Shown here: positions 8,737-33,216 of the stretch, one piece after another | Numbering within the stretch: the stretch's first letter is position 1 | Layout: every line of letters begins with the position of its first letter | Origin: a virus | Length of the DNA stretch: 52,734 nucleotides | Direction: 5' to 3' (one strand) | Virus genome (UHGV): UHGV-0124967 | Notes under the pieces: model-generated | Told to the model about the DNA's origin: nothing | Database searches by the model: none | The model's input: the letters and a program-made list of their open reading frames with translations, nothing else | Made by a program: the position numbers and the translations under genes

Positions 8737-8901
8737 ATGACTGAAAAGCTATGGAAGTTGACGGTATTCATGACAGACGGTAGGGAAAAGGTTATCGCCC
8801 TGTATGACGACGAGGGTGAAGCATTGGTTGACGCGCTTTTACTTGCTGAGGATGACCGCCTTTTGGGATACCAGATCGAACCTGTCAAATATGAGGGTTA
8901 G
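8737..8901 (+). CDS. hypothetical small acidic protein, 54 aa (moron)
   Basis: ATG 8737 with GGAGG 6 nt upstream; inside longer track ORF 8617..8901. Confidence 0.5.
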   Translation: MTEKLWKLTVFMTDGREKVIALYDDEGEALVDALLLAEDDRLLGYQIEPVKYEG

Positions 8902-8905
8902 CAAA

Positions 8906-9259
8906 ATGCAAAAGTATCGTCTTGATGTCTGGATGGCTGGTAGTGATGATTGGGAAGGTTACGGTTTGCATGACAGTTACGAAATGGCGGTCGAGGAAGG
9001 AGAAAAACTCGTTCGATTCTTCGGTCGCGCCAGAGAATTCAAAATTACTCCAGTACAAATACCGGATAAGGTGGAAGATATGAACCCGAAAGATATTAAT
9101 GGTAGCTTCACTGCTTATTATGCAGATTCTATGGACCAGTCTTGCCCTGGTGAAATACACGCAAAAGGTTTCCCGGCTGACGATCCAGAAGCAAAACGCG
9201 AATACGAAAAAGCGGCGAAAGATTTCTGTATCGATAACCTTTCAGCATTCGATAAATAA
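8906..9259 (+). CDS. hypothetical protein, 117 aa (moron)
   Basis: ATG 8906, 5 nt after previous stop, GAGGGT RBS; loosely resembles the preceding protein. Confidence 0.55.
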   Translation: MQKYRLDVWMAGSDDWEGYGLHDSYEMAVEEGEKLVRFFGRAREFKITPVQIPDKVEDMNPKDINGSFTAYYADSMDQSCPGEIHAKGFPADDPEAKREYEKAAKDFCIDNLSAFDK

Positions 9260-9268
9260 GGCGGCAAC

Positions 9269-9517
9269 ATGGGGCGGCGCAATTACGGTGATTATGTGTA
9301 CACGTTGAAACAGGCCGCCCGCCTCGTCGGTTATCATGAGCACGAATTTATTGATTTGATGATTGAGCGCGGGATACTGTACCAGGTCTGTTTAACGCTG
9401 TACCCAAAAGCGAAATACCTACAGGAAAAGTTATTCATCATCATGACAGATGAAAACCAGGTTAACCATTCATTCGTCACTGATAAGGGCGTTAATTATC
9501 TGCGTGATAACTTATAG
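9269..9517 (+). CDS. hypothetical protein, 82 aa (moron)
   Basis: ATG 9269 following previous gene; same strand and spacing. Confidence 0.5.
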   Translation: MGRRNYGDYVYTLKQAARLVGYHEHEFIDLMIERGILYQVCLTLYPKAKYLQEKLFIIMTDENQVNHSFVTDKGVNYLRDNL

Positions 9518-9644: not shown

Positions 9645-9650
9645 TAATAA

Positions 9651-9677
9651 CCCCGCTTCTCGCGGGGTCGTGTTTAT
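9651..9677 (+). terminator. rho-independent terminator ending the plus-strand moron operon
   Basis: CCCCGC-TTCTC-GCGGGG hairpin followed by T-rich TCGTGTTTAT. Confidence 0.6.
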
Positions 9678-10224: not shown

Positions 10225-10285
10225 AAAACCCCCCCATAAGTTACATTTTGTATATATCTTTACGCGCTTCTACGCGAAAAATAAG

Positions 10286-10393: not shown

Positions 10394-10549
10394 ATGAAAC
10401 GCTATGTAGTAGTAATGCTAAATAACGCATTCGAACAAGTGGAAATAGCAATCGTTAAGGGTTTCGACGACGCATTCAAATACGGTCAATTCATGATGAA
10501 TGCGAAAGAAGATGAATACCGGGACTTCTTCCTGAAGGCACTTAACTAA
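10394..10549 (+). CDS. hypothetical small protein, 51 aa (moron)
   Basis: ATG 10394 with AAGGAGG 6 nt upstream; below ORF-track cutoff. Confidence 0.45.
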   Translation: MKRYVVVMLNNAFEQVEIAIVKGFDDAFKYGQFMMNAKEDEYRDFFLKALN

Positions 10550-10566
10550 GGATGATGGGGTGAGTT

Positions 10567-10821
10567 ATGAAACTGGTAGCGATTGACAGAAATCTGAAAG
10601 CACAGAAAAACGCACATGACCGGATCATCAAGAAAGGTAAGGAATTACTTAAAGCCTTTCTGAGAAAAGAAGTTTACCCCAAAAAGTTACGCGACGGTTA
10701 CGGATACAAAATGGATATCAATCTTGATTGGAGGCTGTTTAGCGAAGATTTGAAGGTTTGGTTAATTGTTGAGCACCATGCCTATAACAAGTTATGTGGC
10801 GTGAAAGGCACTCATAAGTGA
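10567..10821 (+). CDS. hypothetical basic protein, 84 aa (moron)
   Basis: Track ORF; same strand directly downstream of 10394 gene. Confidence 0.5.
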   Translation: MKLVAIDRNLKAQKNAHDRIIKKGKELLKAFLRKEVYPKKLRDGYGYKMDINLDWRLFSEDLKVWLIVEHHAYNKLCGVKGTHK

Positions 10822-10874
10822 GTCGAGATATTCGAAAGGGGATATATCGCGCGGAATGGTCGTTTATAAATACG

Positions 10875-10913
10875 AAAAATAACCCCGGCATTGCACCGGG
10901 GTTTAGTTTATTT
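10875..10913. terminator. bidirectional rho-independent terminator
   Basis: CCCCGG-CATTGCA-CCGGGG hairpin (10883-10901) with A-run before and T-rich after; overlaps tape-measure stop. Confidence 0.65.
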
Positions 10914-13250
10914 GCGGCGAGGTTGCAACATTCCGCCTGGTCTTTGAGATTCCCTTGTTATCATTTTCATGGCTACACGTTCCATTGTTAATTCAAGTCT
11001 GCGGCTGTCTTCGTCGCTGAATCCGTTCGTGGTCTGAATGCTGATACTGACAGGCATACTAATACCGCCACCGCCGCCAATATCACGGCCCGGAATAACT
11101 CTGCCGTTCTCGCCAGGAATCATATATTGATTCCCGTTAGATGTCTGGAATAGCTCCGGCCTGTTGTGTTCCCCTACACGGTACATATTGCCACCAATGA
11201 CGCTACCACCATTAAAGCGACCGCCGCCAAAAATTGACGTAGCCAGCGACATGATCGCAGTGAGTGCCGCAGAACCAGCCGCCGCCCATGCGCCGCCAGT
11301 TGACGCCGCTGTTGCCGCCGCCGCCGGGGCCGCCGCCGCAGCAATCTGGCCTTGCGCCGCTACCGCGCCCGCCGTGGTACTTGCCTGAGTCGCTTTGCTT
11401 TGCGTTTCCATCATGATCTGATCTGCTATCCAGTTTGCAGCTATGTCTGAAAGCCTGTTACCGATATTCCCGAGGATATTGCTGCCTAAGTTAGCAAAAA
11501 CATCACTCAATGATTGAGTACCATTTAACAGGCCAACAAGTGCATTGCTCATACCACCTTTAAGGCCATTAACGCAATCACCGATAAGGCTGTTTGTGTC
11601 GCTTTGCGCCTGCCATTGCTCCCACTTCAGATCGCGGATCTGTTGCTCATAGGCTAACAGTTCCTGTTTCTGTTGCGCTTCCGTCACGCCCAGGTCGATA
11701 AGCATTTGCTTACGGACGGCCCATTCATTTTGAACCTGCTGAATAGGGTCTACTTCGCCCTTTAGCTGATCCATCGGGCTTACTATTTGCTCCCATTTGT
11801 CGCGCAATTCCTCTACCGGAATTTGTGCTAATTCTTCCTTTAGTTCCTTACCTATCCCTTTTTGCGCGGCGCGGTACTCAAGGAGAGTGATTTTACCCTG
11901 GGCGAATGCAGCATCAATGGCCTTGCCGCTCTCTAACGCTTTGCGCATAGCGGCGGCGTCTTTGTTGTACTGGTCAGAAACGCTTATACCTTTATCGCCA
12001 AGACGATCAGCTTCAGATTTCTTCTCTTTTTTCTGTTTTTTCGGTTTGTCTACTGGCTTGCCGGATCCGGTAATCGCTCCGTCATTGGCGGCATTCTGTT
12101 CATTTTTCCTTGCTTCTTCTGTAGCCTGGATTGCTGCGGTCAGATCATCCTGTAGTTGCATGACCTTGCCAACGGTCTTACCGTATTTCTTCTCGTAGTT
12201 GCTGTTATATTCGTCGGTTTGCTCTCCTACGACCTCCTTCATCCATTTGTAGGCATCCATTAGTGCCTTGATTGGCGTCACCATTGCGATGATCTTCTCG
12301 GCTACCTCGCCAGCCTTGATTCTGACATCTTCAAACATGTCGATGAATTCGCCACCAGCCGTCTTCAGGGTGTTAAAGCAGGTTTTAGCGAAATCAGCGC
12401 CTTCACTTAAAGCCTTAACACCTTTCGTTACAAGATCGATACCAGCAACAACCGTATCGGATACACCGAAAAGATCATCCAATTGCTCAACAAGTCCCAT
12501 AACCTCGACTTTAAGCTCATTCAGGGCCATGCCGGATGTGCGCGGCAACTGCGCAAACTTCTCGTTTGTTTCCTGCGTAGCCGCCTGGATTGCGTTAACC
12601 ATCCTTTCTGCCGTGATCTTACCGTCCAGCATTTCGGCGCGGAATTGGCCCATTGATAACCCCATCTGGCGTGCCATTGTCTGTACGATGGTCGGGGTGT
12701 TTTCTAACAGGCTGTTGAATTCTTCAGCACGCAACACGCCACCGTCGATAGACTGACGGAATTGACGCATTGAGTTTGACATCTGCTCCGCTGACGCGCC
12801 GCCCAACGCCCCCATTTTCTGAATCGTACCTACCAGGTTAAGCAATTGCCCTTCAGTGGCGGACGTGTTCTTCAGTGAGATAGCTAAGCCTTGCCACAGA
12901 TCCCCGGTATCCTTCATGCTTTGGCCTGTTTCTTTTGATATTGCTTTCAGGCCATCAAAAACCCGTCCGGCGGACTCCGCATCGCCCGTAAGCATTTTGA
13001 TTTTTACGCGAAGCATTTTTGCTTGCTCCGCCATATCCATAAATTGACGCACGGCCTCCGCAGCAATTAGCAAATGGATAACCCTGGTCAGTGCCTTGAT
13101 GGATGTTTTCAGGGTGTTTACCTGGCGGTCAGCCTGTTTTGCGCCGCGCTCTATACGCCCAAAGGCCTGGTCTGCCTGTCGTTGTGCAACGAGAAGTTGA
13201 CCAGTTTTCGCATCAACTTCGTAATAAATTGTACCTACACTGGTAGCCAT
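10908..13250 (-). CDS. H: tail tape measure protein
   Basis: 780 aa; alpha-helical Ala/Gln-rich body, Gly-rich C-terminus; between chaperone and M. Confidence 0.85.
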   Translation of the reverse strand: MATSVGTIYYEVDAKTGQLLVAQRQADQAFGRIERGAKQADRQVNTLKTSIKALTRVIHLLIAAEAVRQFMDMAEQAKMLRVKIKMLTGDAESAGRVFDGLKAISKETGQSMKDTGDLWQGLAISLKNTSATEGQLLNLVGTIQKMGALGGASAEQMSNSMRQFRQSIDGGVLRAEEFNSLLENTPTIVQTMARQMGLSMGQFRAEMLDGKITAERMVNAIQAATQETNEKFAQLPRTSGMALNELKVEVMGLVEQLDDLFGVSDTVVAGIDLVTKGVKALSEGADFAKTCFNTLKTAGGEFIDMFEDVRIKAGEVAEKIIAMVTPIKALMDAYKWMKEVVGEQTDEYNSNYEKKYGKTVGKVMQLQDDLTAAIQATEEARKNEQNAANDGAITGSGKPVDKPKKQKKEKKSEADRLGDKGISVSDQYNKDAAAMRKALESGKAIDAAFAQGKITLLEYRAAQKGIGKELKEELAQIPVEELRDKWEQIVSPMDQLKGEVDPIQQVQNEWAVRKQMLIDLGVTEAQQKQELLAYEQQIRDLKWEQWQAQSDTNSLIGDCVNGLKGGMSNALVGLLNGTQSLSDVFANLGSNILGNIGNRLSDIAANWIADQIMMETQSKATQASTTAGAVAAQGQIAAAAAPAAAATAASTGGAWAAAGSAALTAIMSLATSIFGGGRFNGGSVIGGNMYRVGEHNRPELFQTSNGNQYMIPGENGRVIPGRDIGGGGGISMPVSISIQTTNGFSDEDSRRLELTMERVAMKMITRESQRPGGMLQPRRK

Positions 13251-13303
13251 GATTTAACCTCATGCAAAAATGTGATCTGTGTATCTATTTTATACAAAAT
13301 GGC

Positions 13304-13332
13304 TTTACTTCAACGACTACATTTTGTATAAA
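13304..13332 (+). promoter_or_regulatory. putative promoter for lipoprotein moron
   Basis: TTTACT (13304-13309), 17 bp, TG-n-TATAAA (13324-13332); partner inverted copy at 13291-13302 faces tape measure. Confidence 0.45.
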
Positions 13333-13377
13333 GAAGCCAAAGGGAATGGTCAGTAAATCAAGTTAGCGAGGTGGGTT

Positions 13378-14037
13378 ATGAAACGGTTAGCAAAAGTGGC
13401 AATGATTGCGGCGGTATTGGGTCTGGTTGGTTGCAATGAGGATAATGAAAAAGCGCCTATAGTGACCACTCAAGAACAACAAGCATTAGCAGAGAAAAAT
13501 GCTAAATGGCTTGCAGAACAACAAGCAAAACAAGCCGCATATGAGGCACAGTTAGCAAAAGAAAAAGCTGGTAAACAGTGGCTTGTGGTCGAAAGAAAAG
13601 ATGATATGCAGGACACAAAAAACGTGTTCCTTTTCGTGAAAGCAGAACATTTCAGCGGAAGTCTTGATGCTTTCCCTACACTGAAAGCACGGGATGAAAA
13701 CAAACCTGTATTAACAATCGCTTGCCAGGGTAATAAAACAAAAATGTTCGTAGCATGGTCAAACCATGTAACTGACGCTGGGGACACTACTTATATTAAC
13801 TACCGGATCGGCGATCACAAAGCTGTAGCTACTGAATGGAGTCGGTCAACTAACTATAAAGCTCTTGGATTATGGAACGGCAAAAAAGCCATTCCAATGA
13901 TTAAAAAACTGGTTAACGAAAAACAATTTATCATTGAAGTAGTGCCGGAAGCTGGCGACATTGAGAAAGCAGTGTTTAACATTGATGGTCTTTATAACCA
14001 CATCGACAAAGTGAAAAACGCTTGCAACTGGAATTAA
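13378..14037 (+). CDS. lipoprotein, 219 aa (tail-region moron), function unknown
   Basis: ATG 13378 with GAGGTGG RBS; signal peptide with lipobox LVGC; coiled-coil-like segment; AT-rich compared with neighbours. Confidence 0.7.
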   Translation: MKRLAKVAMIAAVLGLVGCNEDNEKAPIVTTQEQQALAEKNAKWLAEQQAKQAAYEAQLAKEKAGKQWLVVERKDDMQDTKNVFLFVKAEHFSGSLDAFPTLKARDENKPVLTIACQGNKTKMFVAWSNHVTDAGDTTYINYRIGDHKAVATEWSRSTNYKALGLWNGKKAIPMIKKLVNEKQFIIEVVPEAGDIEKAVFNIDGLYNHIDKVKNACNWN

Positions 14038-14046
14038 GGGTGAAAC

Positions 14047-14367
14047 ATGAAACGCGATGAATGGATGAGAAAATGGGAACATAAACAAGTAGCATATAAT
14101 CGCAAGATGAACCGCGAATTTGACTTCGGTGTCGCAGAGCGTGATTGTGGGTATAAAGGAAATCTAAATGGTGCATATGTTCAACATGTTGGCGATAAAC
14201 AGTATTATTACATTGTCAACTTCAACCATGTATTGCACGCAGATCTGGTTGTTATTGATGGGAAAACAAAAATAGTAGCGAATAAACGCATTAATAAGAA
14301 CGCAGCAATCAATATATTAACAGTGATTCGCACCCAGATGAATGTGCTTTACGAAAAAATAGCATAA
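14047..14367 (+). CDS. hypothetical protein, 106 aa, co-transcribed with lipoprotein
   Basis: ATG 14047, 7 nt after lipoprotein stop, AAGGGTGA RBS. Confidence 0.55.
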   Translation: MKRDEWMRKWEHKQVAYNRKMNREFDFGVAERDCGYKGNLNGAYVQHVGDKQYYYIVNFNHVLHADLVVIDGKTKIVANKRINKNAAINILTVIRTQMNVLYEKIA

Positions 14368-14380
14368 GCGAACTTAACAA

Positions 14381-14409
14381 AAACGCCCGGATCTACCGGG
14401 CTTTTTCTT
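14381..14409. terminator. bidirectional rho-independent terminator
   Basis: GCCCGG-ATCTA-CCGGGC followed by T5CTT; the minus-strand chaperone stop sits in the loop. Confidence 0.65.
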
Positions 14410-15070
14410 GCTCGCGATTTTTCATTCTTTTTAGTATCTCCATAGCACCATTCATTCCATCGTCATAAGCCTTTTTATCCAGCAATACATTTGGGCGTTT
14501 TTGTTTGTTTCTTGCTTCTGGCGGCGTTTTAGCGCGTACAGCGGCCCTATATCCGGTCATTGTCATATTCCATGCTTCTGATTCTGATAACCCCAGGTGA
14601 GCTACGGCAGAATAAACGAATTCCAGCACGTTAAAAGTCGGCTTATATTCCCCTTCCCGGATCTCTCCGGCGTCTTCTTCTGGCCCGTCACCGATTAAAC
14701 CGTGGTACATGCAATGTTGTGCCAGCGTGATAACGTCACTGGTCGGCATCAGTCCGGGTTTTAGTCGTAACTTGGCGGAAGAAGTTAACCTACATTCACC
14801 CAATAACGGGGCTATTTCGTCGTCTGAGCAACATTTCAGGATGCGCATTGACGTTTGTACTATCTCACCATAACACCGCGCCATAATGCGATTGCGGAGG
14901 TCTGGATCTGCAGGCAATCGTGATGGGTATTTGCTGCCGTGGATAAGTGCGAAATATTCGACAAGCTCACTATCGTTGCCGATTTTAGCCATCGCAGCAA
15001 AGCAAGGATTAAACTCATAGCGCTTACCGTTCACCACGGCAGCAAATTGTCCTGTACGAACATGGATCAT
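14393..15070 (-). CDS. putative tail assembly chaperone (lambda G/GT position)
   Basis: 225 aa from first ATG (15070, AAGGTGA RBS); track ORF starts at a GTG at 15079. Called by position between major tail and tape measure only. Confidence 0.45.
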   Translation of the reverse strand: MIHVRTGQFAAVVNGKRYEFNPCFAAMAKIGNDSELVEYFALIHGSKYPSRLPADPDLRNRIMARCYGEIVQTSMRILKCCSDDEIAPLLGECRLTSSAKLRLKPGLMPTSDVITLAQHCMYHGLIGDGPEEDAGEIREGEYKPTFNVLEFVYSAVAHLGLSESEAWNMTMTGYRAAVRAKTPPEARNKQKRPNVLLDKKAYDDGMNGAMEILKRMKNREQEKAR

Positions 15071-15082
15071 AGTATTCACCTT

Positions 15083-15107
15083 AAAAGAAAAGGGGCCAAA
15101 TGGCCCC
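15083..15107 (-). terminator. hairpin terminator/attenuator after major tail gene
   Basis: GGGGCC-AAAT-GGCCCC followed on minus strand by T-run. Confidence 0.6.
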
Positions 15108-15125
15108 GATTGTTAATATTGGCTG

Positions 15126-15602
15126 TTATGCTGGCGGAACGTCGCCTACCGTTACCTTGCCAGCGCTTTCGCACTCAATAGACCAGGTGGAAACATCATC
15201 ATGCGGATCTTCTTCTTTAAAGGAAGCGCAAAGGAATGGGCCTTCAGTTACGTCTACAGGAGAAACGATCTTCAGCCATACATAAGGTTGTGATCCGGTG
15301 GTTTCATCTGGCGTAATTACGTGGCGTTTCAGCGCTTTCTGATTATGGATTTCTTCAGTGCGGGACACACCGTCGCCGGAGAAAGAAACGGATTTGTAAG
15401 TAACCATTGATTCTTTCGTGTAATCGGCTGATTTATCGGCGGTGGCGTCAGCGGTTTCCCATTCAACGGAAAGTGTTTTACCACGCATCATGCCTAACGC
15501 TTTGTACGCTCCATCTTCCGGCTTCGCATTTGGACAAGCGATAGCGAAGAATACAGCAACGTCACGGCCTGTAAACGTGCCTTTTTCGCAAGTCTGAGAC
15601 AT
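15126..15602 (-). CDS. major tail protein
   Basis: 158 aa, AGAGGT RBS, followed by attenuator hairpin; position after neck genes. Confidence 0.65.
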   Translation of the reverse strand: MSQTCEKGTFTGRDVAVFFAIACPNAKPEDGAYKALGMMRGKTLSVEWETADATADKSADYTKESMVTYKSVSFSGDGVSRTEEIHNQKALKRHVITPDETTGSQPYVWLKIVSPVDVTEGPFLCASFKEEDPHDDVSTWSIECESAGKVTVGDVPPA

Positions 15603-15615
15603 GTTAATTTACCTC

Positions 15616-16002
15616 TTATCTTGATATGATGGTTTGAAAGGCTACGGTGAAAATAAAGCGCCCTTCTCTTGTCTGTATTGCAGGAATAGCGCCAACTGGC
15701 TTCATGTGTGTAATTTTATCAGTTTTATATTCTGTTAACATACTTTGACGGATGGTATCGGCAAGGTCTTCCACCTCACTGATATTTGCATCATTACGCG
15801 CTGAAATAACCAGGATGCGGAAATAATCACGGGTTATTGCTTCCTCACCAGCCGCGCCGCCGTTTTGCTGGATCACGATGTATCTGTCATTATTCGAATT
15901 ACTTCGCTCATTCCAGAAACGGGCCTGCAAAATATAGCCTTCATCGTATCCGTGGGATTGAATCCAATCCCTTATTTCGTCGTAAACTTCGCTGCGTTTC
16001 AT
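15616..16002 (-). CDS. putative tail terminator / tail completion protein
   Basis: 128 aa immediately upstream of major tail gene. Confidence 0.5.
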   Translation of the reverse strand: MKRSEVYDEIRDWIQSHGYDEGYILQARFWNERSNSNNDRYIVIQQNGGAAGEEAITRDYFRILVISARNDANISEVEDLADTIRQSMLTEYKTDKITHMKPVGAIPAIQTREGRFIFTVAFQTIISR

Positions 16003-16463
16003 ACTTTGTAACCTTCTACAATTTCTTTATAAATATCATCGGCGTGGTTAGGATCTTCGAATGCCTTACGCAAGAATCCAGGCTCCGCATTTGGATCCCA
16101 ATAATTACCCTTTCCAGTACCACCACCAAAACTAATTACCTGTTTCGGTCCGAAATCTGAAAGGTTATTCGTTTTGCCGAAATCTTCGCGCGGCTGGCCT
16201 TTTAATGTACCCGGCATATTGTGCACCCATTCAGCGTAGCGGGCCGTATATCCCAGGCGTAATTGCATACCGTCCGCCGTGTTCCCTATGTACTGGAACT
16301 GACTGTTAATTAAGAAGCCCGTATCGACTGGCGTCATATTAGCCGCGAAGCCACCAGCCAGCATACCGACGCGCCATAAAACTTCGTGCGTCTTTTTATC
16401 GGTGATTTCCTTTAGTTCCTGCTTTAATCTCTCACGGACGCGTTTAACCCCCTTGATAGGCAT
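15999..16463 (-). CDS. neck protein, HK97 gp10-like
   Basis: 154 aa; ATGA overlap with downstream gene; position in neck module. Confidence 0.55.
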   Translation of the reverse strand: MPIKGVKRVRERLKQELKEITDKKTHEVLWRVGMLAGGFAANMTPVDTGFLINSQFQYIGNTADGMQLRLGYTARYAEWVHNMPGTLKGQPREDFGKTNNLSDFGPKQVISFGGGTGKGNYWDPNAEPGFLRKAFEDPNHADDIYKEIVEGYKV

Positions 16464-16465
16464 GA

Positions 16466-16834
16466 TTAACCCCCTGTCACGATCTTATAATCCGGCGTGT
16501 CGTTAAACATGCTCATATCCCATTCAACGATCCCGGTAATAACGTTGGCCCCAGCCACCAGCGGGTCGGAAATATTAGTGGTGTCGCCAGTGGCAATCAT
16601 CCAGCCGTTTTTCGGGCGCTGCACTGGCTGCATATTATGAAGCAGTTCGGTAAATACGGTTATTGTATTGCTAACCTCATTACCGTTTGTGTCTGTTGCA
16701 GTGCCGTCGGTGCGCTCCCATGCGCAGTTAATCAGGTATGGTGCGCCGTATACGTCGGCGTTTGTCCAGTCGTCATGCGTTACGGGGTAGATGGTGGCTA
16801 ATGCCTTGTAACTGAATCGCGCAATCTTACTCAT
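16466..16834 (-). CDS. putative head closure / head-tail joining protein
   Basis: 122 aa in neck module. Confidence 0.5.
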   Translation of the reverse strand: MSKIARFSYKALATIYPVTHDDWTNADVYGAPYLINCAWERTDGTATDTNGNEVSNTITVFTELLHNMQPVQRPKNGWMIATGDTTNISDPLVAGANVITGIVEWDMSMFNDTPDYKIVTGG

Positions 16835-17012
16835 AGCCGTAACTCCAGCTAATGACCTTTGGATGAGTTTTCGCCACGCGCGGGCAAAGAATTACCCATA
16901 AGCCAGCATCATTGAGGTAGGCCGCCACCTGGCGTCCGCTATCCGTTTTAACCCACACGCGGGTAAATGGTTTCGGCAATACTGGATTTGGTAATGTCAG
17001 GTCGTTCCACAT
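16827..17012 (-). CDS. small hypothetical protein, 61 aa
   Basis: First ATG at 17012 with AGGAGG 8 nt upstream; track ORF starts at GTG 17018. Confidence 0.4.
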   Translation of the reverse strand: MWNDLTLPNPVLPKPFTRVWVKTDSGRQVAAYLNDAGLWVILCPRVAKTHPKVISWSYGYE

Positions 17013-17014
17013 TG

Positions 17015-17401
17015 TCACATCCTCCTGCTCTTACCAATCCACAGCCCGGCGTGCGCGGTGTTTTCTGGATCTGGTGGAATTAGTTCGGCTGTACAATGGT
17101 GTTTGTCCAGTGAGTAAAGCAACGAATAGGCCGCCTTCCATCGCTTATTAAAATCGACATAGCGGTAAGACTGGCTTGCACCGTTCGGACCAGTCTGCGA
17201 GGAAACGTATTTATCAGCCTGGCTGAGTCCTAACAGGCCAATGAGATAAAGCTGAATCAATGTTGCAGTGGAGGACGGATAATTGGCATCAAGGCATTCA
17301 TTAACGCTATTTGCCTGCTCCACCAGCAAAGATAAAACCACGTCTGGTATTTCAATCCCCTGGCTTTCGAGATATTCCCGCGCCTGTTGTGTGGTAACCA
17401 T
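17015..17401 (-). CDS. putative head-tail adaptor (gp6-like)
   Basis: ATG 17401 with GGAGAAAAC RBS (track ORF extends to 17437); first gene after capsid terminator. Confidence 0.5.
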   Translation of the reverse strand: MVTTQQAREYLESQGIEIPDVVLSLLVEQANSVNECLDANYPSSTATLIQLYLIGLLGLSQADKYVSSQTGPNGASQSYRYVDFNKRWKAAYSLLYSLDKHHCTAELIPPDPENTAHAGLWIGKSRRM

Positions 17402-17419
17402 TTTGTTTTCTCCACATAC

Positions 17420-17447
17420 AAAAAAAATCCCCGGCATTGCGCCGGGG
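17420..17447 (-). terminator. hairpin terminator/attenuator after major capsid gene
   Basis: CCCCGGC-ATTGC-GCCGGGG followed on minus strand by T8; near-identical stem to 10883-10901. Confidence 0.65.
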
Positions 17448-17466
17448 AGCTACAGAAACATATCAA

Positions 17467-18531
17467 TCAGATATTGCTGCCGTAGACCACTCCTGAACGA
17501 CCTTTCATGTCACGGGTGATTTGCAGACCCTCAGCGGACATGATGCGGAAGTTGTAGTTATCAGTCGGCATCATGCGCGGTAACGGTACAACACCAGTAG
17601 TCATACCAATCAGCGGGGTAATTACGCTACGGCTGCGCTGATAAGCAATGAACTCGTTGCCGGACAATGCATAGCTCTGGCGAATCTCACCAACCGGAGC
17701 GAACGGCATAATGACGCTCAGCACGCTACCAACTACAGCACCATTGACGATGTGCGGACGGGCCAGGTTAGCCATGATCTCAGGCGATACCCACATGACG
17801 TCGTATTTAGCTACGAAGTTGGCGCGAGCCAGCTTGCCGAACTCACCAACGGTGAAGAAGTCAATGATCTTGTCGAAACCCACAGTAGGCAGGTCGACTT
17901 TTGCGACGGTTTTTAGTTTAAGCTGCTGGGTGCTTTTGTGGTTTTTAATACCCATAGCTTTATGACCATCAACCACGATGCGATCGTTACCATTCAGGTA
18001 GAACTGGACGCGTGCTTTGTTGAATTTTTTCAGTTTCAGGCGCTGACTATCCAGGGCAAGGTCGATGCCTACAGTACTCAAGCCCTGAGCGAGACGCCAG
18101 TTAACACCGTAACCAGCCGCGAACATCGGGATCGGGTCGCCATCGCTATCGTATTCGGTGTGATCAAAGCCGTGTGGCGCTTGACCATCCATAGACATCA
18201 CAACTTCATCATTGATGTCACCGGATACGTTGTACATTTTCAGCGTTTTACCGACTGGCAGTACGGTTTGCACACCCATCAGGTCGTTTACGATCTCAAT
18301 ACCGATTTCTTCGGTGTTCAGTTCGATAATCTGGTTATCGATTTCTTTCCAGAATTCTTTTGCGAAGCCGCCGACGGCGTTACAGGCCAACATTTCAGCG
18401 GTCATATTTGCCTGATTTGCTGCAATCATGGCGTTGTGCTGCGCGTTGAAGATATTGCGTTGCGCCCACAGTTCTTTCCAATGGCCCTGCATACGGGCGT
18501 TGGTGGCAAGGTTTTCTTTTGTAAAGTACAT
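17467..18531 (-). CDS. major capsid protein
   Basis: 354 aa between decoration and neck genes, followed by attenuator. Confidence 0.7.
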   Translation of the reverse strand: MYFTKENLATNARMQGHWKELWAQRNIFNAQHNAMIAANQANMTAEMLACNAVGGFAKEFWKEIDNQIIELNTEEIGIEIVNDLMGVQTVLPVGKTLKMYNVSGDINDEVVMSMDGQAPHGFDHTEYDSDGDPIPMFAAGYGVNWRLAQGLSTVGIDLALDSQRLKLKKFNKARVQFYLNGNDRIVVDGHKAMGIKNHKSTQQLKLKTVAKVDLPTVGFDKIIDFFTVGEFGKLARANFVAKYDVMWVSPEIMANLARPHIVNGAVVGSVLSVIMPFAPVGEIRQSYALSGNEFIAYQRSRSVITPLIGMTTGVVPLPRMMPTDNYNFRIMSAEGLQITRDMKGRSGVVYGSNI

Positions 18532-22543: not shown

Positions 22544-22691
22544 AATGTTTACTCCTGAATACATGTTTACGCGTTGCTACGCGAAAAATAGAAAAACTTG
22601 TGGGGGATTGTGAGACAGATTTTATGTAGCCAATTGAGAATTATTCTTGTTCATCTTCGAAAATTTTTCGAAGTTGATAATAATCAATAAC

Positions 22692-32305: not shown

Positions 32306-32501
32306 CCTTCACCTCGCGACGATAGATTTCTACTGGCTTAACCGGAATAGCGTTAAAATCACCTTCATCCAGTGCGGCAATAAACGTTAGCGCCAACCGT
32401 GCTTCAACACCGCTTAAATACTTGCACCATGCCTCACCGTTATAATCTTTAAAAAGAATAATCACTTTTTCATGTTTATCTCTTGTTGTTTCATTATTCA
32501 C
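32295..32501 (-). CDS. hypothetical protein, 68 aa, non-ATG (GTG) start
   Basis: No in-frame ATG; begins at GTG overlapping the Q stop. Confidence 0.4.
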   Translation of the reverse strand: MNNETTRDKHEKVIILFKDYNGEAWCKYLSGVEARLALTFIAALDEGDFNAIPVKPVEIYRREVKDEA

Positions 32502-33216
32502 CCCGTGTCACTCGTTTAATTTCGTTATCAGCCCGCGCCTCTTCTTTGAACAATTCAGTAATGGCGTCTTCATAGAAAGCACGGTATTTCTTCCACCACG
32601 TTGATCGGCTTACCGGAAATACAAGCTGATTAACCGCACGCCGGACAAGATCTACAGGGAAACGCGAGTACCCGCGCCCGCCGCAATGCTGGCACGTTTT
32701 GAACACTGGCATTTCCGCTGCTTCACTGGCTGCTTTATCCGGTATCTCGCCGCGCCCTTTGCATCGTTTACAATGATTGCGAACTTTTCCATGCCCCTTG
32801 CATTTTTTGCAAAGGTGTTTTTCTCCGTAGTCGTCAAACGTAAATTTATATCCGCCGCAATCCATACAAGTTTTTTCTGTCGCGGCACTCTGGCAGTAAT
32901 CCCGAAACGCGAAAACGGCAACAAGAATAATAAGATCATTGCGTTTGTCCTCGTCCAACTCCATGACGTATTCGTAATCTTTTGCCATAGCTCTTAAACG
33001 CTCTGTAAGCAAAACTACGGCCCTGTGTTTTTCGGCTTGCGATAATTCCATCTTCCCTAAAAAAGCGCTATAACCAAGCTCTACGCGCGATTGCGCCATA
33101 CCTGCTGCGGTTAGTGCATCAGTAGTATTAAGCGAGTCTGGGGACGTGCCCCGGCTTTCATCTGACAAACGCGGTGATTTTGGGAAGTGGAATTTAAGAA
33201 TAGATTCCAAATTCAT
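32494..33216 (-). CDS. Q: late-gene antitermination protein Q (zinc-finger type)
   Basis: 240 aa; four CxxCxGxG repeats; follows RusA and a small gene as in nin regions. Confidence 0.65.
   Translation of the reverse strand: MNLESILKFHFPKSPRLSDESRGTSPDSLNTTDALTAAGMAQSRVELGYSAFLGKMELSQAEKHRAVVLLTERLRAMAKDYEYVMELDEDKRNDLIILVAVFAFRDYCQSAATEKTCMDCGGYKFTFDDYGEKHLCKKCKGHGKVRNHCKRCKGRGEIPDKAASEAAEMPVFKTCQHCGGRGYSRFPVDLVRRAVNQLVFPVSRSTWWKKYRAFYEDAITELFKEEARADNEIKRVTRGE

Follow-up and report, generated by a model that had tools for sequence, protein, structure and literature searches.

Two near-identical hairpins follow the tape-measure and capsid genes

The UHGV virus genome UHGV-0124967, analysed here as one stretch of 52,734 nucleotides (nt; hereinafter designated the window), belongs to the mEpimmI (mEp021-like) group of temperate Nus-dependent coliphages and carries its structural genes all on the minus strand. 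Two GC-rich hairpins lie within this gene array, one starting 6 nt past the stop codon of the tail length tape measure protein gene (hereinafter designated site 1, or the tape-measure site) and the other 19 nt past the stop codon of the major capsid protein gene (hereinafter designated site 2, or the capsid site). The underlying 19-mers, CCCCGGCATTGCACCGGGG at 10883-10901 and CCCCGGCATTGCGCCGGGG at 17429-17447, differ at a single base, A10895 at site 1 versus G17441 at site 2. A first-pass annotation of this DNA had described near-identical GC hairpins, one base apart, behind the capsid and tape-measure genes; both 19-mers are confirmed, and the gene assignments hold through phrog_771/ES18 gp9 and phrog_1538, with the tape-measure orthologue labelled tape measure protein in both mEp021 and MagusPhagus.

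Table 1 Coordinates of the two sites and of the genes discussed with them
Feature	Coordinates	Strand	Description
Site 1 hairpin and tracts	10870..10914	both	Bidirectional intrinsic terminator (predicted); hairpin 10883-10901 = CCCCGG CATTGCA CCGGGG
Site 2 hairpin and U8	17418..17448	minus	One-way intrinsic terminator (predicted); hairpin 17429-17447, minus-strand RNA CCCCGGCGCAAUGCCGGGG
Major capsid protein gene	17467..18531	minus	phrog_771, E = 4e-140; 64% amino acid identity to ES18 coat protein gp9
First gene after site 2 (128 amino acids)	17015..17401	minus	phrog_786, E = 6e-47, full length
Tail length tape measure protein gene	10908..13250	minus	phrog_1538, E = 1.6e-155
Accessory island, two small open reading frames (51 and 84 amino acids)	10394..10821	plus	phrog_29810 and phrog_1525
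Q-type late antiterminator gene	32497..33216	minus	tblastn, 92% identity to mEp021_37

The hairpins had further been proposed to work, each with a U-tract, on the minus strand, and both sites indeed display the full predicted anatomy of a Rho-independent (intrinsic) terminator in that direction. Each stem consists of 6 G-C pairs and 1-3 further pairs closed by a loop of 3-5 nt (the GC-rich stem of site 2 being 7-8 bp long), and each hairpin is intergenic, just past the stop of the upstream gene. The U-tract that follows on the minus strand reads TTATTTTTCG at site 1 and ATTTTTTTTG at site 2. The latter amounts to A+U8, the U8 corresponding to A8 at 17420-17427 on the plus strand. The predicted minus-strand RNA stabilities are -16.3 and -17.5 kcal/mol at the two sites (z ~ -3), and both sites rank among the top in a terminator scan of the minus strand. 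An Rfam search returned nothing at or above the gathering score, only two chance-level matches (E = 0.37 and 0.8).

Only site 1 combines an A-tract on its 5' side, a T-tract on its 3' side and convergent genes. The minus-strand tail, UUAUUUUUCG, comes from the A-rich run at 10872-10882 and the plus-strand tail, UUUAGUUUAUUUG, from the T-rich run at 10902-10914, part of which coincides with the tape-measure stop codon (10908-10910); the U-tract itself reads UUAUUUUU in the minus-strand and UUUAGUUUAUUU in the plus-strand direction. The terminator scan gives site 1 a score on the plus strand too, with the tail TAGTTTATTT. The two plus-strand open reading frames (ORFs) of the accessory island, 10394-10549 and 10567-10821, converge on the hairpin, the last stop lying 61 nt before it. 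By contrast, site 2 has neither a U/T-tract on the plus strand nor a convergent gene.

The resemblance is confined to these two places. A search of the window that allowed up to 3 mismatches returned sites 1 and 2 as its only matches, compared with 0.02 expected from dinucleotide shuffles, and hairpins of the form CCCCGG-N(3-12)-CCGGGG likewise occur at these sites only (0.01 expected). A third copy or a larger repeat family was sought in the window and none was found. As the window holds just two copies and related contigs likewise have two each, the pair does not have the make-up of a dispersed repeat family of the REP/BIME or MITE kind. According to a repeat finder, the two sites resemble each other over 32 nt (88% identity; 10870-10901 versus 17416-17447), a stretch that takes in the A/T-tract and an ATAC besides the hairpin; apart from the A/T-tract, the flanks of the two copies are unrelated.

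Conservation and annotation in the mEpimmI group

The structural region of the window is ~85% identical to those of MagusPhagus, mEp010, mEp044, mEp554, mEp021, mEp013 and mEp515; the mEpimmI group has been described previously (PMC11893012). Searching related phages for the hairpin, as the first-pass annotation had suggested, recovers it at the capsid site in all 8 complete phage genomes, each time with T8, GGAG and ATG, and at the tape-measure site in 6 of the 8. The capsid-site hairpin is also present in 19/19 copies anchored by the downstream flank, a retrieval that is unbiased with respect to the stem. Variation at this site is limited to three loop positions, while the stem, the T8 and the downstream ribosome-binding site are invariant. 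At the tape-measure site, the CCCCGG hairpin is found in 28 of 32 IMG/VR contigs anchored by an unrelated marker ~0.6-1.5 kb away, and the remaining four have a third hairpin type, GGCCGC...GCGGCC.

Predicted terminators are annotated at both orthologous positions in the GenBank records of relatives, namely T12 (capsid site) and T16 (tape-measure site) in mEp554 (PP180005; ARNold predictions), T11 and T15 in mEp010, and TERM_7 (capsid site) in mEp021 (MH706966). The annotated terminators of these three phages share with the window the same two positions, the CCCCGG/CCGGGG stem and the T-tracts, except that mEp021, like mEp013, differs from the window at the tape-measure site, where both have a hairpin of unrelated sequence, GCCCGCAAG...CTTGCGGGC, and where the 3' end of the tape-measure gene has diverged as well. 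These entries are predictions only, and neither the records nor PMC11893012 comments on the near-identity of the hairpins; in our literature searches, neither these late-region terminators nor their similarity were found described. With orthologous terminators already annotated in public records, the pair is a known kind of feature, real but unremarkable.

Loop variation and the transcribed strand

Read in gene sense, the loops at site 1 are UGCAAUG, UACAAUG, CACAAUG and CGCAAUG, rarely CAUUGUG and UACAAUU, and those at site 2 are CGCAAUG and CGCGAUG, rarely CAUCACG. Across the 8 distinct variants, positions 7-13 and 8-12 can pair on the minus-strand RNA in 14 of 16 cells (as C-G, U.G, G.U or A-U), compared with 10 of 16 on the plus-strand RNA, where U.G and G.U turn into C.A and A.C. 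The base that distinguishes the two sites in the window takes part in this pairing, opposite G13 on the minus-strand RNA, as U.G at site 1 and C-G at site 2. It is therefore a stem-extending position, so that the earlier description of a difference in one loop base is correct as to the single base, but not as to its being free in the loop. The pairing pattern fits function on the minus-strand transcript; as many site 1 copies were retrieved with a pattern that permits transitions only, this strand evidence is modest.

In two instances the whole 7-nt loop is inverted: at the capsid site of mEp554 (L001, 9393-9411), which has CAUCACG in place of the usual CGCGAUG, and at the tape-measure site of a second relative (L066, ~1672-1690), which has CAUUGUG in place of CACAAUG. 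These are independent flips between the arms of the inverted repeat and argue against sequence-specific recognition of the loop.

Proposed function in the late operon

The Q-type late antiterminator gene of the window lies upstream of the lysis, head and tail genes and on the same strand. Its counterpart mEp021_37 is annotated as 'putative late gene regulator Q' and matches Pfam PF03589, Antitermination protein Q (E = 1e-29), and the gene order of mEp021 (Q, lysis, terminase, portal, head and tail in one direction) indicates a lambda-like late operon. Both N-like and Q-like antitermination have been reported for the mEpimmI group (PMC11893012). We consider it probable that the two hairpins are ordinary Rho-independent terminators of a Q-antiterminated late operon, their likeness most probably stemming from an ancient single origin. 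The terminator reading has what support sequence analysis can give: from the anatomy, position and conservation of the hairpins and the presence of Q, we infer termination itself, read-through and the single-origin scenario.

Site 2 would act as a strong, in-operon, one-way terminator or attenuator that stops unmodified RNA polymerase on the minus strand only. Past the hairpin, the minus strand continues with A+U8 and then GUAUGUGGAGAAAACAAAAUG, which holds the ribosome-binding site (GGAG, 17410-17413) and the start codon (ATG at 17401, 18 nt past the end of the U-tract) of the phrog_786 gene. Both signals are conserved in the alignment of relatives and lie within 26 nt after site 2, which leaves no room for a promoter, and the downstream head-tail and tail genes therefore depend on read-through. 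In late growth, site 2 would be passed by Q-modified polymerase, or would be leaky; either route would favour the capsid mRNA, which would end up with a hairpin at its 3' end. Site 1, flanked by an A-tract and a T-tract, would terminate both converging transcripts and insulate the accessory island from the tail operon. The Q protein could let RNA polymerase read through both terminators. Such an arrangement establishes in which direction the late transcripts of a common group of gut coliphages run and where they likely end, and implies that expression of the tail genes downstream of the capsid gene hinges on read-through, most plausibly by Q antitermination.

Phage T7 has a partially efficient terminator, T-phi, right after major capsid gene 10 in a long late transcription unit, and the genes downstream of it are expressed by read-through. 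T-phi acts on T7 RNA polymerase, whereas in the window the host enzyme modified by a lambda-type Q would be involved.

Several points weigh against the proposed function. The minus-strand U-tract of site 1 is interrupted (UUAUUUUU, or UUAUCUUU in relatives), and given this interruption the efficiency of site 1 may be modest. The hairpin at site 1 has been replaced in two lineages, and its sequence is therefore dispensable. The terminators tested in PMC11893012 (t1, t2 and t5) belong to the early and not to the late region. Finally, if Q-modified polymerase ignores terminators altogether, any role in capsid stoichiometry during late growth would be small.

A different role for the hairpins would be that of 3' stabilisers or recognition sites that guard the processed capsid and tape-measure mRNAs from 3' exonucleases or are bound by a phage-specific factor coordinating both genes. 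Such a role would suit the invariance of the stems at both sites, the need for the products of both upstream genes in defined amounts, and a Q-modified polymerase that would ignore the hairpins as terminators. However, the conserved T8 right after the stem is a hallmark of termination for which stabilisation has no need, the varying and even inverting loops speak against recognition of a sequence, no Rfam family reaches its gathering score, and stabilisation is anyway a normal by-product of terminator hairpins. We regard this role as extremely improbable.

The hairpin sequence also creates spurious gene starts, as CAAUGCC supplies an AUG. The long ORFs opened by an in-hairpin AUG on the minus strand (17015..17437 and 10739..10891) were considered as genes and rejected as mechanical artefacts; for the former, the start at 17401 is preceded by a ribosome-binding site (GGAG) and yields a product that matches the PHROG profile from end to end. 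The automatic annotation of mEp044 and mEp013 gives the gene after the capsid gene such a long start inside the hairpin.

A further GC hairpin (GGGGCC AUUU GGCCCC followed by UUUUCUUUU) lies at 15092-15107, directly after the major tail protein gene (15126-15602), so that the two most abundant virion proteins each precede an in-operon terminator-like site.

Origin of the likeness

The first-pass annotation had attributed the shared sequence to copying during mosaic recombination. The pair occurs across the mEpimmI group, and any copying therefore predates the diversification of that group. Two hairpins of such close likeness in a single genome are unlikely to have arisen independently, which makes a shared origin plausible, and the tape-measure hairpin of mEp515 agrees with the capsid-site consensus at 19/19 positions, which traces both sites back to the same sequence. 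The idea of copying is thus tenable as regards a shared origin, but not as an event of the window genome. In the scenario we favour, the near-identity would have been inherited, both copies being probably present in the common ancestor of the group, and the inferred ancestral sequences of the two sites would converge on the same 19-mer. The most likely origin would be one ancient duplication or replacement of a terminator cassette of ~19-27 nt, after which each copy would have drifted through changes that preserve minus-strand pairing.

Concerted evolution or gene conversion between the sites was also considered and rejected. The loop variants are uncorrelated within genomes (UGCAAUG with CGCAAUG in the window, CGCAAUG with CGCGAUG in mEp515) and give no sign of ongoing conversion.

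Other observations run counter to a single origin. The similarity between the sites ends at the hairpin and T-tract and thus leaves no traceable recombination tract, and the extra GTAT match between the window sites is seen with one island type only. Moreover, a single origin is not provable, the same 19-mer having evidently arisen many times elsewhere.

In an exact-match scan of IMG/VR, the 19-mer was found at no fewer than 120 loci; the matches listed comprise 59 distinct flank contexts, some of which may be homologous to one another, and 46 of these have an adjacent A- or T-run. A scan of bacteria with one genome per species gave at least 120 contexts in Firmicutes, Actinobacteria, Proteobacteria, Acidobacteria and other phyla. 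Terminator-like tracts accompany 57 of the 120 bacterial contexts listed, and the remainder may be chance matches in high-GC genomes. The 19-mer is thus ruled out as a signature private to one phage lineage, being widespread in unrelated viral contigs and bacterial genomes. Nor does sharing it, in general, attest to copying in the way the first-pass annotation had suggested: with at least 59 flank contexts in IMG/VR and no fewer than 120 bacterial species, this hairpin turns up in dozens of phages and bacteria that are unrelated to one another, and so its occurrence, identical over 19 nt, at two positions or in two genomes is weak evidence of copying.

These matches bring in independent convergence on a common stable hairpin, CCCCGG(C)-GCAAU-(G)CCGGGG, with no copying between the sites. 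Besides the recurrence of the exact 19-mer next to A- or T-runs in phages and across many bacterial phyla, convergence would account for the similarity staying within the functional element in most relatives. GCAAU/AUUGC is also the commonest loop among the CCCCGGC-N5-GCCGGGG hairpins listed. It is, however, only modestly favoured, at ~5 of the 120 listed, and the notion that this loop is uniquely favoured was discarded; loops on this stem are diverse, and no other loop in the T-tail orientation occurs more than 4 times among the matches listed. Two such hairpins, and only two, in 52.7 kb compare with ~0.01-0.02 expected, and two independent draws at 18/19 identity would be improbable (at most 1e-3 by a rough estimate of ours). 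Together with the 19/19 match in mEp515, this makes convergence unlikely, if far from negligible, and we retain the single ancient origin as the preferred account.

The turnover of sequence at a fixed position, a further point for convergence, is illustrated by more distant phages. Salmonella phage ES18 has a terminator annotated as 'putative' (AY736146, 7562-7580) that likewise lies between the capsid region and the next head-tail gene, and Erwinia phage Midgardsormr38 and Pseudomonas phage PAShipCat1 have its equivalents. These three phages have capsid proteins homologous to that of the window (55-64% identity), and a hairpin with a T-run follows shortly after each capsid gene, yet the hairpin sequences are unrelated; that of ES18, CCGCGAAAGCGG-T7, differs from the window. 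The position of the post-capsid terminator is therefore older than its sequence. Inheritance of the hairpin with the capsid module from distant relatives was rejected, as ES18-like and Pseudomonas phages carry unrelated hairpins there. In the ES18 arrangement, unlike in the window, a small extra ORF also lies between the capsid gene and the terminator.

Two occurrences of the 19-mer outside the group stand out. In unrelated IMG/VR contigs it lies 4-11 nt after the stops of giant ORFs (2365 and 2636 amino acids), preceded by an A-run; these ORFs carry the Pfam LPD39 'large polyvalent protein' domain. Contigs of this kind are L100 (19-mer at 9657-9675) and L015 (2888-2906), in both of which a convergent gene lies on the far side of the 19-mer, which would be its terminator, as well as L071, L090, L095, L043 and L009. 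In a metagenome-assembled genome of an uncultured beta-proteobacterium (L309, 6032-7776), three direct copies lie within 1.8 kb with near-identical flanks, cccaaaaagaaaaa...tgttct, and related genera (Gallionellaceae; L252, L267 and L297) have single copies with similar flanks. The L309 copies are another case of a terminator-like hairpin reused locally.

A mosaic junction at the tape-measure site

The first-pass annotation had placed both hairpins at module boundaries. This applies to the tape-measure site, which lies at a junction, but not to the capsid site, which is embedded in sequence conserved on both sides. To the right of site 1, the tape-measure 3' end is conserved among relatives. 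On the left, at least 4 unrelated island sequences start 8-10 nt past the stem, and the span from the tape-measure stop to the next conserved block ranges from 631 to 1515 nt. Homology among relatives thus breaks at site 1, with variable islands on one side, and some relatives have exchanged the hairpin as well. The tape-measure terminator accordingly marks a fixed border of a hypervariable accessory island.

Such a position could mean that the hairpin is primarily a recombination linker at the DNA level (a boundary sequence, homology patch or cruciform) that promotes exchange of the adjacent island, and possibly of modules between the sites, with termination secondary. Boundary sequences are an established concept (PMC3029335), site 1 is the exact point where homology among relatives ends, divergent tape-measure alleles such as that of mEp515 retain the same hairpin, and the loop inversions at site 2 of mEp554 and site 1 of L066 show DNA-level events at the inverted repeat. 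Site 2, however, is at no mosaic junction; as a homology patch, 19 bp is very short; 6.5 kb of essential genes would be lost if the two direct copies recombined; and in some relatives the hairpin itself was swapped along with the island. Illegitimate recombination, with selection then favouring intact genes, would moreover be just as expected to leave junctions at gene or terminator borders. A linker as the primary function is very unlikely in our view.

A more specific version, which we consider distinctly doubtful, takes the tape-measure hairpin and the conserved block beyond the island (with a group-specific element at 10249-10283) as homology arms and the island as an exchangeable cassette; the twin at the capsid site would be a relic, and the loop inversions would reflect cruciform or template-switch activity. 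For both sites we prefer the terminator reading.

The term moron denotes a gene with a promoter and a terminator of its own on either side (PMC3029335). As with morons and with bidirectional terminators at the borders of gene islands in lambdoid phages, site 1 closes a small variable accessory block between conserved tail genes. Unlike a moron, the island in the window lies on the opposite strand and shares one hairpin with the converging tape-measure gene instead of having a private one-way terminator.

Islands of small plus-strand genes break the minus-strand tail operon three times (8804-9517, 10394-10821 and 13378-14367), and the hairpin at the end of each (9650-9668, 10883-10901 and 14385-14401, respectively) has terminator scores in both directions. 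The tape-measure gene is thereby isolated between two opposite-strand islands.

A second two-copy repeat

The group-specific element at 10249-10283 is one copy of a 35-nt repeat whose other copy lies at 22556-22590 (86% identity). On the minus strand, its core is UAUUUUUCGCGUAG-N3-CGCGUAAA, and the hairpin predicted for it is weak. The copies lie 25-60 nt upstream of the starts of minus-strand late genes, an M-like minor tail gene (ATG 10224) and the portal gene (ATG ~22543), respectively. The core at the tail-gene site is present in 8/8 complete relatives; the portal-site copy was checked in mEp021 only and is present there. An IMG/VR scan for the repeat returned 85 stretches, and those listed come nearly all from contigs of ~50-57 kb, typically two per contig. 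A conserved TATAAT precedes the tail-gene copy, and the repeat may be a promoter-proximal or 5'-untranslated-region control element.

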